Source: a virus | Taxonomy: Duplodnaviria; Heunggongvirae; Uroviricota; Caudoviricetes | Length of the DNA stretch: 45,106 bases | IMG/VR virus record: IMGVR_UViG_2541047951_000008 | Reading direction: 5' to 3' (one strand) | In this document: positions 7,712 through 31,806 of the stretch, in pieces | Layout of the letters: each line of letters opens with the position of its first letter | Numbering within the stretch: position 1 is the first letter of the stretch | Position numbers and translations under genes: made by a program | Notes under the pieces: model-generated | What the model was told of the DNA's origin: nothing | The model's input: only the letters and a program-made list of their open reading frames with translations | The model's database searches: none

Positions 7712-10700
7712 TCAGCTAATCGTGATGCCTGCAGTGGCTTTCTTCATCACAACAACCAGCAAATCGCTGATACTTGCTGTGGGATACCAGCCATTTACCC
7801 ACCATGCTGATACAGAAAACTCCAGCGTCATGTCGCCGCGACCAGCAGGCATATCAATAACACCACTGTAAACCAGCGTATTATCCATCGCGGTACGGTT
7901 ATAAATTTCAGCACTGTTTTTCTTCACTATCAGGCGGCATGACGAATAAGTATCGCTGTTCTCCCGCTCATGTCTGGCACCGCTGAAAGCCACCGCCGGA
8001 ATAACAATCTGCCGGTTAAACGGCTGATCGTCATAAACCCTGACGGTAATGGTTCCTGATGGCCAACGCTTCGGTGCACGGGAGTCACGAGGGAAAGCCT
8101 TACCCACTGTTTTAACGAGATCGCCTTCAATCTGGTTTGCAGACAGTTTCCCTCTGATGACACAGTTCTCGTTAATGGTGACATTATTGAGCGTGCCGGT
8201 ATTCGCCGTGATGGCTCCACTGATATCCGCATTGCGGGCTGTCAGCCTGCCATCCGGCGTCAGGGAAAACGTCGGAGGATTGCCGGATGACGTGATGCTC
8301 ACCGCAAACAGTCGCTTCAGGAACACGTCGTTCATGAACAGCTGATTCCCCTGCGCCACAAACAGCGGCGTGGTGTTGCCGTTCTCCGGGGTAATCATCG
8401 CAATGCGATCGGCCTGCAGCAGAATGTTACTCAGGGTCTGACCATCAACATCCTCAATCCCCGCACCAATCCCGGCCACATAGGGAATACCGTTTTTTGT
8501 TTTCTGCACCTTCAGCATATACATGGCATTCAGCTCATTGCGCGTGTCTGACTGAACCCGCTGGATTTGCTGTATGGTCACGGCCTGGTCACCCAGCTTT
8601 TTATCCGTGGTCGAGGTAATTTCACTCCCTTTTTTATCCACGTACTGGCGGACCTGTGCTATCTGTCGGGCGTTTTCTGACTGCCCCTGGCTGACAGTCT
8701 GTGAGATTTCACTGCTCACCCGGTCCACTTTCTGGCTCACCTGCGCGATGGCCAGTGTCTGATCCTCATTCTTTTTCGCAACCAGCTGCGTGAGGCTGTT
8801 TTCCGCCTTCCCGATTTTCCGGGTCACTTCTGCGATATCCGTGTCCATCCGCTGACGGATATCTTCTTCCAGTTGCGTGACCTCCATACGCAGCGCTGAA
8901 GCATCAATGCGCTCTTTCAGTGCCTGACCCAGAAGCGTCTCATCTATCAGCCCCCGGAAAATTTCCAGATACCCTTCACCATCATTGCTGGGCTGCCCGC
9001 TGGCTTCCACAAAAGCAGATTTTCCCACCAGGTTGACGCTTCGCACGTAAAACCAGAAATCCGTCCCCGGCTTAATCCGGCTCCCCTGGACAGTCCACTG
9101 ACTGCCGGTCCCCAGATAACGGGCAGATTTTTCCACCTGTGCTGTGTTCGTGATGCGTTTTTCTGAGAACCAGAATTCAAACTGTACCGTCGGGTCATAC
9201 ACCGCAAGACGCGGGACCGCCGTTATCTGAAAATACCCCGGCGTCAGCTCAATGGTGGCGGGTTTTGCAGGTGCGTTAATCCGGAACGATACCGACGCCG
9301 GATCGCCCTGCTGTCCCCGGGCATTTACCGCCCGGACCGTCAGCGTGTAACGCCCCAGCGCCAGCTGCCTGAAGCGGTAAGTGGTTTCCGCCGTCCGGGC
9401 CGTGCTGACCAGCCGCTCACTGCCGTCATCCGCTGTTACGGTCAGACGGAGCAGGAAGCTCACGCCCTTCACCACCTTCGGCGTGTCCCAGCGCGCCAGC
9501 ACCTGATATTCCCCGCTGTCTGCGGTGACTTCGGCGGTCAGGTGCTGCACCGCTGGCGGCGTGACACCATTCACCGTGCCGCTCTGGTCGCCGTCAAAGT
9601 GCGCTCCGTTATCCACGATGGCCTCTTTTTCCGGCACATGCTGCACGGCGGTGATGGCATACGTGCCGTCGTCGTTCTCACGGATACTCACGCAGCGGAA
9701 CAGTCGCTGGCGCAGCGTCGGCAGCTTCAGCCCCCATACGCTGTATTCAGCAACACCGTCAGGAACACGGCTCACTTTTACCTTCACGCCGTCGGTGACG
9801 GACTGAACCTCCACGCTGACCGGATTGCCACTTCCGTCAACCAGGCTTATCAGCGTGGTACCGGAGGATGGCAGCGTGATTTCACGGTCGAGCGTCAGCG
9901 TCCGGGTCTGGCTGTTCACCGCCAGCACTCGCCCGCCGGTGCTGATACCGGCATAGTCATCATCGCAGATTTCAATGACATCGCCCGGTACATGGCGAAG
10001 CCCTTCAGCACCCACGCTGAAGTCCACGGTCTGCGTTTCCAGCAGCTCCGTTTTAATCAGCCACAGCCCGGCGCGGTGTGCCTGCCCCCGACTGGTACAG
10101 CCAAAGGCATCCATCTTCGTGACGTTACGACCGTAACGGAGAATGGCCTGCGTATCTTCAACAAGCTCTGTCGCCGTCTCCCAGCCGTTATCCGGGTCAA
10201 TCCAGTTCACCTCAACGGCATTATGGCGGTCCTTCAGGGCGCTGAAGCTGTAGCGGAACGGCGCGCCATCATCCGGCATCACCACATTACTGCGGTTATA
10301 GGTCCACACCTTATCCGACGGTCGGTCCTGCACGAACGTCAGCGTCTGCCCGTTCCATACCGGCATACAGCGCATCGCCGAACAGAAATCACTGAGCACA
10401 TCCCACGCCTTACGCTGTGTGGTCAGGTACGCATTACAGGTGATGCGCGGCTCCGTGCCACCAAAACCATCCGGCACCGACTGGTCGCAATACTGTCCGA
10501 TGACATACAGCGCCCATTTGTCCACATCCGCCGCACCAAGACGTTTCCCCATGCCGTAGCGCGGATGGGTCAGCATATCCCACAGACACCATGCCATGTT
10601 GTTGCTGTATGCCGGTTTAAACGTTCCGTCCCAGATACCGCTGTATTGCCGCCTCTGCGGGTTATAGTTCGACGGCACCTGCAGAATGCGCCCGCGAAGA

Positions 10701-11410
10701 TGATAATTACGACTCACCTGCTGGCTGCCGAACTGTTCCGAGTCCACCTGCACGCCGACCAGTGCCGTGTTCGGGTAGCACTGTTTCACATCGATGATTT
10801 CGGTGTATGACGACCAGAGCGTTTTGTTCTGCAGCTGGTCTGTGGTGCTGTCCGGTGTCATCCTGCGCATCCGGATATTGAACGGGCGCGGAGGCAGATT
10901 ATCCACCACCACCGAGGCCAGATACTGCGAGGTGGTTTTGCCCTTAATGGTGATGTCTTTTTCCGTCACCCAGCCACCGTTACGTTGTATCTGAACCAGC
11001 AGGCGAACTTCCGACGGATTCCGGTCCCCCTTTGAAGTGGTTTCCACCAGAGCCTGCACACCGAAGGTAAAGCGCAGACGGTCGATGTTTGCAGACGTGA
11101 TGGTCCGGGTGATCGGCGTGTCATATTTCACTTCCGTACCCAGCACCGTCTCGGATCCGGAGGATTCAAAACCCTCCGGCGGTGTCTGCTCCTGCTCACC
11201 TGCCCGGAACACCACCGTGACACCGGCGATGTTGGTATTCCCTTCACTGTCCAGCACCGGCGTACTGTTCAGCAGCACGCTTTTTAATCCATCCACCGGA
11301 CCTTCTATCGGTCCTTCGCTGATGGCATCGATCACACTCAGTAACTGCGTGGATTTCAGGTTGTCCTTCGCTTCGCGCGGGGTATGCCCCTTACTGCTGC
11401 CTTTACCCAT
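7712..11410 (-). CDS. J: Host specificity / central tail fibre protein J
   Basis: 1232 aa, N-terminus [37 protein letters not shown] matches lambda gpJ; synteny I-J-lom. Confidence 0.95.
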
Positions 11411-16800: not shown

Positions 16801-16887
16801 TTTAAACTCTGCCGCATCAATCCCCAAATCAATGACCAGGTTGGCTATCTGGTCCATAACGCACACCTCCGGAAATACCTTCCCCAA
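13801..16887 (-). CDS. H: Tail tape measure protein (gpH-like, 1028 aa)
   Basis: Long coiled-coil-rich protein; C-terminus ...INNDGTNGQIGPAALKVVYDLGKKAAADFMQQQARDGGRLSGAYR closely resembles the lambda gpH C-terminus; position between G/T and M. True start may be an internal Met near 16857. Confidence 0.9.
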   Translation of the reverse strand: MGKVFPEVCVMDQIANLVIDLGIDAAEFKNEIPRIKNLLNGAASDAERSSARMQRFMERQTQAARQTTQAASSAATAASVHAQTVEKNAQAHERMAREVEKTRQRMEALSQKMREEQAQAMALAEAQDKAAAAFYRQIDSVKQASAGLQELQRIQQQIRQARNSGGIGQQDYLALISEVTAKTRVLTQAEEEATRQKVAFIRQLKEQATRQNLSSSELLRAKAAQLGVSSAAEVYIRKMEQAGKATHSLGLKSAAARQEIGVLIGELARGNLGALRGSGITLANRAGWIDTLMSPKGMMLGGVIGGIAAAVYGLGKAWYDGQKEGEEFNRQLSLTGHYAGVTAGQLWTLSRAISGNGITQHAAAGALAQVVGSGAFRGNDIGMVARAAAQMERSVGQSVSDTINQFKRLKDDPVNAAKSLDNELHFLTATQLEQIRVLGEQGRSSDAARIAMSALAEETGRRTADIDNNLNALGSTLQTLSDWWKQFWDAAMNIGREDSLDAQIATLQEKVSRAKRLPWTASSSQVEYDQQRLNDLQEKKRQKDLQDAKEQAERNYQEQQKRRNAENAALNRMNETEAARHQREIARINAMQYADQAVRDAAIQRENERYEKALASGKKKTRETRNDEATRLLLQYSQQQAQVEGQIAAARQSAGIATEKMTEAHKQLLALQQRISDLDGKKLTADEKSVLARKDELIQALTLLDVKQQELQKQTALNDLKKKTIQLTSQLAEEERAQRQQHDLDIATVGMGDQQRQRYQVQLSLRQKYQQQLEQLRRDSEQKGTYNTDDYRKAEQALTESLNRQLNENRRYWQRLEIAQGNWKNGVLRALQNVTENADNTAGTVEQLFTSAFSSMSDWLATFCTTGKLNFKSFTSSVLSDMSRIMAQIALMKAVKGIASALPFDFVANADGGVYQSADLSRYSGTVVNRPTFFAFAKGAGVMGEAGPEAILPLRRGADGKLGVVADIGGSGMAMFAPQYNIEINNDGTNGQIGPAALKVVYDLGKKAAADFMQQQARDGGRLSGAYR

Positions 16888-27362: not shown

Positions 27363-27533
27363 ATCCTGGTATTTGTAATGACTGGCTCTTATCTCAACGC
27401 AGCCCCTTACCGCGCGCAAGATGCTCAATATCAAGCATCAGCAATGAGATGTTTAATCTGGATTCACTCCAGAAGTGATCACCATCCTGTCTACAGAGCC
27501 AGATGTGAAGGATGATGAGTAAAATTATCGCTA

Positions 27534-28016
27534 TCATCGAAGGCATTGCGTCCTGATGTATTCCTGAAGCGTTCTCAGTGCTGTTTGGTCGCGGATAATT
27601 CCGTCCCGGATACCGAGAACGTTTCGTCCAGCAACTGGAGAGAGTTCGACGGTGGCATCATTGCCCATGCCGGAGGCGCTGGAGGTTTCGGCTGAGGATG
27701 GCACAGGGCATTTTCCTTTGACGAACACCCGACCACCATTATCAAGCTTGCGCCGAAGAGCATCATTTTTAGCTTTCGCATCAGCTAACTCCTTCGTGTA
27801 TTTAGCATCGAGTGCATCAGCAGCACGCTGGCGCTGCTGCATGTCAGTAATGGTGGCGGTCGCCTGCTTCAGCTCACTGACTTTTTTATCACGCTGTTCT
27901 TTATAGGCGATGGCGTTATCACGGTAATGATTGACCGCCCACGACAGGCAGACGATGATGCAGATAACCAGAGCATAAATAATCGCGGCGACTCTGCTCA
28001 CTGATCTATCCCCCAA
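27534..28016 (-). CDS. Rz: i-spanin Rz
   Basis: ...[38 protein letters not shown]...[19 protein letters not shown] matches lambda Rz; the track start is probably a non-ATG codon and the true start is uncertain. Confidence 0.85.
27575..27781 (-). CDS. Rz1: o-spanin Rz1 (lipoprotein embedded in +1 frame of Rz)
   Basis: [21 protein letters not shown]...PPAPPAW resembles lambda Rz1 (MLKLKMMLCVMMLPLVVVGCTS...PPPPPAW); lipobox VVGC; wholly embedded within Rz. Confidence 0.75.
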
Positions 28017-28531
28017 CAGGCTAATGCGCTTTCCTGGTCACGACGAATAACTTGCCCATAGCAGTTATTTGAACGTATGCGGCAATCGCGCCCACCATCT
28101 TTTATCCACCAACGAATCGCCTCACATGCACCCTTACGATCACCGGCATTCAGCCGCTTATAAAACGTCGACGGGAAACACTTACCAGGGCCAATGTTAT
28201 AGGGACAGAATGACGCGATACCGGCTTTCTGTGGCTCGGTCAGTGGAACTTTTATATTGCGCTCCACCCATGCCAGCGCCTTATCCCGCTCAATGGCGTT
28301 AACCTGGGCGCATTTTTCCTTCGACAGTTTCATTCCCGGAATAACAGGTTTACCGTCCACCATCGTTGCTCCCCGACAGATGGTCCATATGCCGGAGCCA
28401 TCGCGGTATGCAGTGATGTGATTCCCCTCTTTTTCATCCAGAAACTGATCGAGAATGTCAGGCGCGGGCGCACCGACGGCAATCAGTGCCAGAACAGCAG
28501 CCGACAGGCTGTATCTGATTTTTACGTTCAT
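27998..28531 (-). CDS. SAR endolysin (GH24 lysozyme with N-terminal signal-anchor-release domain)
   Basis: N-terminal hydrophobic [13 protein letters not shown] followed by T4-lysozyme-like catalytic region E...D...T ([24 protein letters not shown]); paired with a pinholin upstream. Confidence 0.85.
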
Positions 28532-28594
28532 GGATATTTATCAGGATTTATCGGTTTCTGCCCACGGACAGGTTTATCTGTTCCGGTCAGTGAC

Positions 28595-28945
28595 TTAAGG
28601 TTGTGATTCCGGAGGAGTCTTCAGAGAACCAGTAATTCTTCCCGGTAGCTTTCCTTTGTAGGTTATCCATACATTCTGCGCCTCTAAAATTACGGGGCGC
28701 TTTTCCGGCGACTGCTCATCCCCTTCACATAACCCGGCAGCAACATCCAGGAAGACCTGTCTGATGCTCATTCTGGCTGCTGCCTCATAAAACTCCAGCG
28801 CGGCACCTTCAACACGGTCCAGCGAGATGTCCAGGTCAAAAATTTCACCGTCAAAGCGTTTTTTGTCCCGTAACGCTAAAGTTACCGTAACTTTATTCTC
28901 AAAATTGCGGATCCCTTTCACAATCAGTTCATAGTTTTGAGTCAT
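28595..28945 (-). CDS. Hypothetical 116-aa soluble protein inserted between holin and endolysin
   Basis: ORF on the late strand filling the holin-endolysin gap; no TM segment; function not recognised. Confidence 0.5.
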   Translation of the reverse strand: MTQNYELIVKGIRNFENKVTVTLALRDKKRFDGEIFDLDISLDRVEGAALEFYEAAARMSIRQVFLDVAAGLCEGDEQSPEKRPVILEAQNVWITYKGKLPGRITGSLKTPPESQP

Positions 28946-28949
28946 TGAA

Positions 28950-29165
28950 TTACTCTCCCCGTGCAGCCTTACGCTTGTCTTCTCTGATTTTGAAGTACAG
29001 ATTTGTCAGATAAGTCAGGAAGCCCAGAACCAGACTCCCCAGTACACCAATCGCAGCCCACTGTGACGGACTGACCTGATCAAGCCACTGTAAAAACCAG
29101 TAGCCAGCACTGCCTGCGGAGGTGCCATAGGCGACACCCGTTGTTAACTTATCCATGGATTTCAT
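28950..29165 (-). CDS. Class II pinholin (phage 21 S21-like) with dual-start motif
   Basis: [71 protein letters not shown] is near-identical to S21 pinholin; MKSM gives antiholin/holin dual starts; track ORF extends to 29228. Confidence 0.85.
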
Positions 29166-29232: not shown

Positions 29233-30285
29233 TTATTTCCCCACCAGCTCGTTTATCTCTTTCACTGTCTGGTTAAACCGCTCTGACTCAAGCTCAACAC
29301 CTAAGGCCCGACGCCCCAGCGCCATTGCTGCTTTTATTGTGGAACCGGATCCCATAAAAAAATCAGCAACCAGATCACCAGGTCGACTACTGGCATTGAT
29401 TATTTGCCTGAGCATATCCGCCGGTTTCTCACACGGATGTTTACCCGGGTAGAACTGAACGGGTTTATGCATCCAGACATCGGTATAAGGCACGGAGACT
29501 GATACGGAGAAATAGCGCCGGAGAGATTTAAACTCATCCAGCAATTCAGAATATTTGCGATTCAGTGAATCATAAGATGCCACCAGCTGGTGGTGTGGTT
29601 GTTCCAGTTGTTGTTCCTGAAACTTCTCTGCCGCTATACGGGAAAACAGTGCCTGTAACTTCCGATAGTCAGCCTCATTCGGCAACTGCCACTGACTGGC
29701 ACCAAACCAGTGGGAAACCATATTTTTCTTACCTGTGGCTTCGGCAATTTGTTTTGCCGTTATACCCAGTTCGGCACGAGCATCCCTGAAATACGATATC
29801 AGCGGTGCCATTATGTGCTGTTTGAGTTCCCTTTCTTTTGCCGCATAGCCGTCACTTTTGCCGCGATATGGCCCCTGGTAATGTTCAGCAAACAGAACGC
29901 GCTCTGTGGCAGGAAAATATGCGCGCAGACTTTCTTTATTACACCCATTCCAACGTCCGGACGGCTTCGCCCAGATGATATGGTTAAGCACGTTGAAACG
30001 TTCACGCATCATGATCTCAATATCAGATGCCAGGCGATGCCCACAGAACAGGTAAAGGCTTCCGGCAGGTTTTAACACCCGCCAGAACTGGGCCAGACAG
30101 TGGTCCAGCCACTTAAGGTAATCTTCGTCCCCTTTCCACTGATTGTCCCAACCGTTGGGTTTCACCTTGAAGTACGGCGGATCGGTAACAATCAGGTCAA
30201 TGGAATCATCAGGCAGGGACTGAATAAAATGCAGGCAATCAGCGTTGATTAAATCAACACTGTTTATTTTTACAGTATTTTTCAT
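29233..30285 (-). CDS. DNA methyltransferase, beta-class N6-adenine/N4-cytosine type
   Basis: N-terminal motif [10 protein letters not shown] and C-terminal motif [10 protein letters not shown] (order IV...I = beta class, N6_N4_Mtase-like); located between Q and the lysis genes. Confidence 0.85.
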
Positions 30286-30663: not shown

Positions 30664-30909
30664 GACATACCAATAACTCTTGTCTAAAAAGCCAGCAAGA
30701 TAAAAGGTCAGTATTCACGACCACCAGCGTGTTTACTGTACTGCACCAAGTTTACAGGTACAAAAAAACCGCTCAGCGGCGGGTTTAAGTTGTGTGGCGA
30801 AGTAACCACTCTTAACAGCATATTTGATTTTTTACGATTGTAAACGGTTGATTATTCATCTCCAATAAAAATAATTGTGTAGGTATGCCCTTAACAATGG
30901 ATAAGAAAC

Positions 30910-31356
30910 ATGAATAAAATGACTGTACTATTACTTAGCGCAACTATCATTTCAGGTTGTACTTCTTCCGTACCATTGATAAAAAAAACTCAATCAGGAA
31001 AACCTGAGGGGGTTTATCAAAATACGACAAAAGATAAAGTCAAAGATGCCCTTGTGAATTACTGCAATAGTAGAGGGTTGATAATTTACAACGCTGATAA
31101 CAGCAGTGTTATATGTGGTAAAGAACTGGAAGGCGGGTCTGCTGTTTTTGGACAAATGTTAATCGGCAATGCCTATTCAACAACCCCGGTATCAAAAGTC
31201 AGATTTACTATCGCTCAAGTTAATAACGATACAAAAGTGTGGGCCGATATGTGGATGGAAACTCAAATGGCAATGGGGCAAGTACAACAAATGGCTATAA
31301 CAGACAACGCAAGCAAAAACACTATCCAACAACGTCTTGATGAATTAAAACCTTAA
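30910..31356 (+). CDS. Predicted lipoprotein (moron, opposite strand to late genes)
   Basis: Signal peptide with lipobox MNKMTVLLLSATIISGC; AT-rich; located between Q and the lysis cassette on the opposite strand. Confidence 0.65.
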   Translation: MNKMTVLLLSATIISGCTSSVPLIKKTQSGKPEGVYQNTTKDKVKDALVNYCNSRGLIIYNADNSSVICGKELEGGSAVFGQMLIGNAYSTTPVSKVRFTIAQVNNDTKVWADMWMETQMAMGQVQQMAITDNASKNTIQQRLDELKP

Positions 31357-31440: not shown

Positions 31441-31806
31441 CTAACGATCCATCTCTAGCTCAATTTCTAACATCATTAACATGCCATCAACTACACCTTC
31501 AGCCTTTTGCAATAAACGCCCAACCCAGCAATCAGAACGCCCATGTTTACGGGCAAGCGCCATAAACGTCATACCACCTACATAATAATCCACTAATAAA
31601 TCGTGCAAATCGCTGTTGTTCTTTTTCAGGCGAGCCATGCACCCACAAATGATCATCGCATCATCGTCACAACATTGCGGGCGGGATTTTACTTTTGAAG
31701 GGATTAGTCCTTTAAATCCTGCAGCAATAGACGACCAGGTGACATCCTCGTGATTATTTGCCACCCATGCCCCCCAACGTTCAAGAACCATTTGAATATC
31801 ACGCAT
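31441..31806 (-). CDS. Late gene antiterminator Q (phage 82 / QuuD-like family)
   Basis: [75 protein letters not shown] recognised as E. coli prophage Q antiterminator; track ORF starts 5 codons earlier. Confidence 0.85.

Follow-up and report, generated by a model that had tools for sequence, protein, structure and literature searches.

A YdfR (DUF1327) family gene between the holin and endolysin genes of an Escherichia lambdoid prophage, and its possible connection with RNase E

Results

Organization of the lysis region

The window, that is, the whole stretch of 45,106 nucleotides that was analysed, carries a lambdoid late region on its minus strand. The Q antiterminator gene is followed by a methyltransferase gene, a hairpin, and the genes for a holin, YdfR, a lysozyme and Rz/Rz1, and then by genes for terminase, portal and capsid. 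Prophages of E. coli MS21324 and of two other strains match this region with 100% identity. Its features are as follows.

31441-31806, minus strand: Q antiterminator gene
30768-30780, minus strand: terminator-like hairpin downstream of the Q gene, GCCGCTGAGCGGT then TTTTTTT
29233-30285, minus strand: gene for a DNA methyltransferase (N6/N4), 350 aa
29210-29226, minus strand: terminator-like hairpin between the methyltransferase gene and S, GGCCACGTCAGGTGGCC then TTTTTATTTC (T-run), from a consensus scan
28950-29165, minus strand: S, gene for a class II (P21-type) holin of 71 aa with an M1-K-S-M4 dual-start motif (PF04971, E = 3e-35)
28946-28958, minus strand: S-ydfR junction as read from the sequence, with GGAGAG (28953-28958) inside the end of S, the S stop codon TAA (28950-28952) and a 4-nt spacer (28946-28949) before the ydfR ATG
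28595-28945, minus strand: ydfR-family gene, 116 aa plus stop, an ATG-to-TAA ORF identified with Pfam (DUF1327), PHROG and RefSeq
28724-28945, minus strand: conserved N-terminal core of YdfR, aa 1-74, with three beta-strands, one long helix and an EGAxLEFYEAxA motif
28598-28723, minus strand: C-terminal region of YdfR, aa 75-116, poorly modelled and swapped between relatives
28532-28594, minus strand: ydfR-R spacer of 63 nt; by alignment, the R-proximal ca. 17 nt (CCTGATAAATATCC before ATG) are conserved and the distal part is a mosaic hot spot
27998-28531, minus strand: R, gene for an RrrQ-type phage lysozyme of 177 aa with a SAR-like N-terminus (PF00959, E = 7e-24)
27534-28001, minus strand: Rz i-spanin gene, with the RefSeq start (RefSeq name 'lysis protein'; PF03245, E = 2.5e-28)
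27575-27781, minus strand: Rz1 o-spanin gene, embedded in Rz (PF06085, E = 3.8e-21)

The cassette is of the phage 21 pinholin/SAR endolysin type, with a dual-start PF04971 holin, a PF00959 lysozyme with a SAR-like N-terminus, and Rz/Rz1; SAR release of the lysozyme is predicted. The holin is 86% identical to EssQ of K-12 and has a hydrophobic maximum of 1.72. The lysozyme, with a hydrophobic maximum of 1.87 at residue 9 of its N-terminus, is 92% identical to K-12 RrrQ and 90% identical to R of 933W, but only 33% identical to an R21-type enzyme, and is thus of the RrrQ/933W type. In cassettes of this type the known regulator of lysis timing is the antiholin S21-71, which phage 21 makes from the dual start of S21, and the M1-K-S-M4 dual start is kept in the window holin. 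However, S21-71 is a membrane protein encoded within S, whereas the 116-aa YdfR is soluble and unrelated to it.

The order holin-ydfR-lysozyme was found in the window, MS21324, the cryptic prophage Qin of K-12, BP-4795, and the loci L007-L014 and L018. This synteny is not universal among DUF1327 loci, as L015, L016 and L017 differ.

Three other features of the window were noted in passing. A 50-aa ORF (27394-27546, minus strand) overlaps the end of Rz and corresponds to a RefSeq hypothetical protein (WP_001139675.1) in the identical genome. An ORF of 148 aa on the opposite strand (30910-31356, plus strand), between Q and the late genes, has a lipoprotein-like N-terminus (MNKMTVLLLSATIISGC...), and the best promoter-like match of the region (30891-30920) lies at this ORF, which looks like a moron expressed in the lysogen. 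A tmRNA gene (ssrA, tag ANDENYALAA) is present at 698-1060 on the plus strand, close to the window's left end. As ssrA is a classical prophage integration site, the prophage may be integrated there.

Identity of the 116-aa protein

An earlier note on this DNA had described a gene for a 116-aa protein at 28595-28945, in the gap between a pinholin gene and a SAR endolysin gene and on their strand. The coordinates, strand and length are exact, and the placement of the 116-codon ORF between the genes for the P21-type holin and the SAR-like lysozyme was confirmed, with Rz/Rz1 next. The product had been assigned to no recognised family, which is wrong: it belongs to Pfam DUF1327, the 'YdfR family' of RefSeq, and PHROG 406/2091. 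The match to DUF1327 (PF07041) has 142.4 bits, against a Pfam cut-off (gathering threshold) of 25 bits, with E = 5e-42, and it covers profile positions 1-92 of 93. Both PHROGs, 2091 and 406, are matched with E of about 1e-68 and are listed as of unknown function. RefSeq has the identical protein (WP_000193264.1), called 'YdfR family protein', from a 100% identical genome, and the window protein is 80% identical to K-12 YdfR across aa 1-74. Phage vB_EcoS-640R1 also codes for the identical protein. We regard membership of the YdfR/DUF1327 family as practically certain. The Pfam match, the dN/dS values of the N-domain (below) and the RefSeq annotation of the identical protein mean that this is a real gene and not a chance ORF. 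Annotations in K-12, RefSeq and many phage records already cover the gene, its family and its S-R placement, so that the observation is not a new one. The homology and structure search that had been suggested thus identified the family, but its fold and profile parts were uninformative. An annotated domain, which had been named as a finding that could speak against a role in lysis if it were unrelated to lysis, is present as DUF1327, and that idea is answered to this extent.

The best known relative is YdfR of K-12 (b1555, P76160), which has the same DUF1327 domain and lies in the same order in Qin, essQ-ydfR-rrrQ-rzpQ/rzoQ. It differs from the window protein in having 103 aa and an unrelated C-terminus, whereas the window protein has the commoner SPEKRP...GSLKTPP module. 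Furthermore, the K-12 ORF runs into the start of R with an ATGA overlap, while the 63-nt spacer separates the two genes in the window. ORF47 of the Stx1 phage BP-4795 and its equivalents in H-19B and the Stx1a/Stx2c phages are closer to the window gene in architecture. They begin 4 nt after S and have a similar length (114 aa) and the same C-terminal module, and R downstream of ORF47 is 90% identical to that of the window. However, ORF47 has a deeply diverged allele of the N-domain with a different beta2-beta3 segment, and is 63% identical to the window protein overall.

Properties of the protein

The description of the product as soluble holds, as there is no transmembrane or signal segment in window YdfR; its maximum Kyte-Doolittle 19-residue mean is 1.03, whereas the holin reaches 1.72 and the endolysin N-terminus 1.87. 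The pI is 5.2 overall, 4.9 in the mildly acidic N-domain and 8.4 in the tail, which is slightly basic. The AlphaFold2 model has a core of antiparallel strands (residues 5-14, 18-27 and 34-43) and a helix (residues 50-73) with pLDDT of 70-89, and pLDDT is below 50 across residues 72-116.

About 19 positions are invariant or nearly so in the family: Y5, E6, L7, V9, K10, N14, V21, L25, E46, G47, L50, E51, F52, Y53, E54, A57, F65, A69 and L72. They concentrate in strand 1 and at the start of the helix (E46, G47, L50, E51, F52, Y53, E54 and A57). Pairwise dN/dS of the N-domain is mostly 0.25-0.5, and is near 0.25 against the BP-4795 allele at dS 1.6; the maximum is 0.69, and the high values all come from comparisons with the MAG-derived copy L013. 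By this measure the N-domain appears to be under purifying selection.

Searches beyond the family gave little. The PDB sequence profile search returned chance-level matches only, and the fold searches returned no informative match. Neither the window protein nor the longer variants matched the PADLOC defence models or NCBIfam, and window YdfR matched none of the lysis-category families of Pfam and PHROG. Among phage modulators of RNase E, we compared YdfR with T4 Srd, T7 gp0.7 and phiKZ gp37/Dip, an inhibitor of the RNase E degradosome (PDB 5ft0), and found no sequence or fold homology to any of the three.

Expression signals

The S-ydfR junction is shared with other cassettes. In 933W, the same arrangement of GGGGAGAGTAA, 4 nt and ATG serves R directly, whereas in BP-4795, Qin and the window this junction opens ydfR instead and R is displaced downstream. 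In Qin, it reads as the same GGAGAGTAA, 4 nt and ATG, joining the holin gene to ydfR. Because the GGAGAG Shine-Dalgarno sequence lies within the last S codons and ydfR begins after a gap of 4 nt past the S stop, translation of ydfR is probably coupled to that of S. In the ydfR-positive cassettes, the start region of R is AU-rich and conserved (...CCTGATAAATATCC-ATG) and has no Shine-Dalgarno sequence. A regulatory RNA in the ydfR-R spacer was considered and rejected, as the spacer has no Rfam match and folds no better than its shuffles (z = -0.17).

A consensus scan of the minus strand from 28532 to 29165 gave no promoter- or terminator-like site. The nearest terminator-like site to ydfR is the hairpin at 29226-29210, upstream of S. 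Since this strong hairpin precedes the start of S, the lysis genes should need Q-mediated read-through to be expressed. The hairpin at 30780-30768, with ydfR downstream of it, is probably the tR'-like terminator of the late promoter region. The lack of a promoter- or terminator-like site of its own, the GGAGAG with its 4-nt gap, and the Q antiterminator upstream suggest that ydfR is expressed late, in a Q-dependent manner, and coupled to S. In K-12, the chromosomal gene is essentially silent, with almost no RNA-seq reads under standard growth (PMC13232886).

Distribution, presence and absence

We searched 5,426 complete E. coli genomes for the three genes. DNA like ydfR was found at 8,613 places (up to 10 per genome) in 4,348 of them (ca. 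80%), the P21-type holin gene at 16,887 places in 5,165, and the RrrQ-type lysozyme gene of the window at 11,108 places in 4,427. These figures are ratios of counts, adjacency having been verified in the inspected loci only. The earlier note had taken direct succession, S21-R21-Rz/Rz1, as the norm from which this locus departs. The premise is wrong for E. coli cassettes with the RrrQ-type endolysin, in which the state with ydfR is the commoner one (8,613 vs 11,108 places), although direct succession of S and R does exist. In 933W, S is followed after 4 nt by an R that is 90% identical to that of the window, with no ydfR between them. In phage IdasGreatGrand, a holin 98.6% identical to that of the window is followed directly by an R21-type endolysin, 33% identical to that of the window. 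Thus, the holin type and the endolysin type of the window each occur without YdfR.

In the phage collection, a YdfR homologue is present in 101 of the 438 records with a P21-type holin. Most of these are Stx1a/Stx2c converting phages, H-19B, BP-4795, mEp460 and induced E. coli prophages; Stx1a phages account for 41 of the YdfR-bearing records and Stx2c phages for 15. The Stx2a phages are nearly without YdfR, with 2 records having YdfR vs 124 having the holin. The comparison of lysis cassettes among relatives that had been proposed therefore shows ydfR absent or cut short in close relatives, which is one part of what had been said to count against a lysis function, the other being identical lysis timing. 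The gene is an insertion/deletion polymorphism at the S-R junction and no obligatory part of lysis. More likely, it is dispensable for the lysis machinery and encodes an accessory protein rather than a lysis regulator.

The family is small. DUF1327 forms 319 clusters at 90% identity among 5.8 billion, and 64 representatives at 50% identity among 1.84 billion proteins. In GTDB, with one genome per species, there are 8 loci, all from Escherichia/Shigella save two MAGs, which are probably contamination. Rare members carry the names Yersinia rohdei and Cronobacter, and the family is nearly absent beyond Escherichia/Shigella. Two MAG cassettes carry Firmicutes labels: L013 (labelled Bacillota) has an E. 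coli-type holin-ydfR-lysozyme cassette with 74-80% protein identity to the window, and L011 (labelled Veillonella parvula) one with about 90%. Both are almost certainly the result of binning contamination.

Variation and distant members

The C-terminus of YdfR is replaced or extended in variants of 103, 104, 114, 176, 183, 206 and 287 aa, and has been exchanged in the K-12, E. albertii and mEp460 forms. In E. coli KGu016, with 99.6% identity elsewhere, about 510 nt (L002 2560-3069) with an opposite-strand ORF of 86 aa (phrog_2572) take the place of window positions 28559-28609; this insert removes the last four codons of ydfR, and RefSeq labels that copy a pseudogene. A different opposite-strand ORF, of 84 aa (phrog_2411), lies in the ydfR-R spacer of E. 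ruysiae (L007 3340-3688), and convergent small ORFs of yet other PHROGs lie behind the distant DUF1327 genes in the tail regions of L015 and L016. A convergent small ORF often follows a DUF1327 gene. We considered a conserved partner gene of DUF1327 and rejected it: the convergent ORFs of KGu016, L007, L015, L016 and L017 fall into four PHROGs and show no mutual similarity except for L007/L017. The gap 3' of these genes is an insertion hot spot and not part of a two-gene module.

The more distant members are found in other surroundings. P0146 has the C-terminal module of YdfR with a different N-terminus, and lies upstream of another holin family. P0171, whose cluster includes the Yersinia rohdei protein, lies between tail genes I and J, and P0176, the weakest match of the exhaustive search, between M and L; the tail-gene context, of lambda-like tail modules, was looked up for these two of the most distant members only. 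By these locations, the DUF1327 core behaves like a mobile cassette landing in permissive gaps of late operons, and such behaviour argues against a dedicated holin or endolysin partner. P0161 (3,128 aa, E = 3e-9) was rejected as a homologue, because six near-identical repeats, each with only 29 bits and 33% identical over 52 aa, inflate its summed score. The database proteins P0025, P0034, P0041, P0083, P0090 and P0111 (139-187 aa) join a P21 holin domain to DUF1327, and are most likely frameshifts or read-through across the 4-nt S-ydfR gap rather than real fusions.

Published data on YdfR

In a 2026 study, a two-hybrid screen in which RNase G was the bait yielded residues 1-72 of K-12 YdfR three times, and the full-length protein interacted with residues 1-597 of RNase E (Rne) (PMC13232886). 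FLAG-tagged RNase E 1-598 co-eluted with Strep-YdfR from lysates, and DNase-resistant nucleic acid reproducibly co-purified with YdfR (PMC13232886). Overexpression of YdfR in K-12 had no toxicity or effect on growth, and altered few transcripts (PMC13232886). The segment sufficient for the interaction falls in the portion over which K-12 YdfR and the window protein are 80% identical. The authors liken RNase E binders such as YdfR to Srd, a small protein of phage T4 that attaches to the same N-terminal half of the enzyme and stimulates the decay of host mRNA (PMC13232886, and work cited there). The analogy is a functional one between two small phage proteins reported at the catalytic half of RNase E, as no sequence relationship was detected between them. 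Furthermore, Srd belongs to the early proteins of a virulent phage, whereas YdfR comes from a late-operon gene of temperate phages and altered few transcripts on overexpression.

Other reports are scattered. The supplement of Paradis-Bleau et al. (2014) includes the Keio ydfR mutant among the CPRG-positive envelope mutants. Since the kan cassette lies immediately before rrrQ, the SAR endolysin gene, a polar effect on rrrQ is a plausible cause of this phenotype. In an overexpression screen, ydfR raised the streptomycin MIC 3-fold (PMC12924614), and the 2024 y-ome survey still classed the gene as uncharacterised. Literature searches on ydfR, DUF1327 and essQ/rrrQ found no lysis study of ydfR.

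Discussion

What is the function of YdfR? The contact with RNase E is the best mechanistic lead, and the following explanation can be built on it. In lambdoid prophages of Escherichia, YdfR would serve as an accessory protein that is small, soluble and cytoplasmic, is made from the Q-dependent late operon by translation coupled to the holin gene, and presumably acts on neither the holin nor the endolysin. Its beta3-alpha N-domain, to judge from residues 1-72 of the K-12 protein, may dock on host RNase E (and RNase G) at the catalytic N-terminal half, possibly together with RNA. Such docking would adjust RNA turnover late in infection, and the variable C-terminal tail could tune or redirect the RNase-related activity. 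The data come from the K-12 variant, whose C-terminus differs, and not from the window protein. Because they consist of overexpression, two-hybrid and lysate co-elution experiments, the contact could be mediated by RNA, and the few transcripts altered on overexpression (PMC13232886) count against the proposal. Moreover, a lysis-related role would also fit the strong association of ydfR and RrrQ-type lysozyme counts and the Keio CPRG phenotype. We hold the RNase E mechanism to be the likeliest of those considered, though doubtful as the biological role of YdfR. Identity and mechanism taken jointly make up our best explanation, which we put somewhat short of an even chance, as a compromise between the two.

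A variant of this proposal confines the action to the phage's own late transcript. YdfR would be a late-phase adaptor or inhibitor of RNase E/G, with RNA decay setting the holin:endolysin ratio and the timing of lysis; for example, it might protect or process the S-ydfR-R segment, in which R has its AU-rich start. If true, this would join the lysis idea of the earlier note to the published RNase E contact. We consider it improbable.

The idea that YdfR regulates lysis had been put as an antiholin-like protein or an endolysin inhibitor. An antiholin-like protein is not what we find, because YdfR has no transmembrane or secretion signal. The more general claim of a lysis regulator found no positive support beyond the position of the gene, given that the holin already has the dual start of S21-type holins, that the holin and endolysin types occur without YdfR and that two of the most distant members lie in tail modules. 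A cytoplasmic modulator of lysis can nevertheless be envisaged, holding the SAR endolysin before its export, touching the cytoplasmic C-terminus of the pinholin, or controlling how much R is translated relative to S through occupancy of the ribosome site coupled to S, as a non-essential fine-tuning. It would agree with the S-R position of ydfR in all the Escherichia/Shigella copies that we examined, with the coupling of its start to the S stop while R is shifted to a start without a Shine-Dalgarno sequence, with the close counts of ydfR and the RrrQ-type lysozyme, and with the CPRG phenotype. However, that phenotype may be polar, YdfR has no transmembrane, SAR or signal segment and no match to a lysis family, and overexpression in K-12 leaves growth unaffected. 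The endolysin type works without YdfR in 933W and the holin type in IdasGreatGrand, distant homologues occur in tail modules, and the C-terminus is free to be exchanged or shortened, as in K-12 and in mEp460 and other propagating phages. On balance, we judge such modulation unlikely.

The other suggestion, a moron, can be kept in the loose sense of an accessory gene inserted at the S-R junction, as the comparison of 933W with the window, BP-4795 and Qin indicates. In the strict sense it cannot, as ydfR appears not to be a classical moron with transcription signals of its own. An accessory cargo of this kind might have another target (counter-defence, exclusion of competitor phages, or host takeover) and occupy permissive gaps in late operons, the RNase E contact being incidental. 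This agrees with the patchy occurrence across phage lineages, common in Stx1a/Stx2c and nearly absent in Stx2a, with the shuffling of modules between variants, with the location in known insertion hot spots beside varied opposite-strand small ORFs, and with the tiny, clade-restricted family (64 representatives in 1.84 billion proteins; Escherichia/Shigella, with rare Yersinia and Cronobacter). Furthermore, between the window and BP-4795 the N-domain has dS 1.6 beside a 3' part with dS 0.22 and an R that is 90% identical. However, PADLOC, NCBIfam and the fold searches gave no informative match, ydfR has no transcription signals of its own, and no experiment points toward such targets. We find a cargo with another target rather unlikely. 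Alternatively, ydfR could have no function and be decaying filler that recombination between the conserved S and R genes carries along, as the many truncated, fused or C-terminally replaced versions and the many functional phages without it might suggest. A functionless remnant is unlikely because of the purifying selection on the N-domain, with dN/dS mostly 0.25-0.5 even at dS 1.6. The N-domain is also intact, with its near-invariant positions kept across variants, and the gene is found in 4,348 of the 5,426 genomes and in identical or near-identical form in induced, propagating phages. We consider this reading very improbable.

With ydfR among the most widespread prophage genes of E. coli, the interest that is left lies in its function and not in its presence. 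If the RNase E role that we tentatively favour is correct, temperate lambdoid phages, including the Stx1/Stx2c converters, would carry a late modulator of host RNA decay, which might influence when toxin and virions are released.
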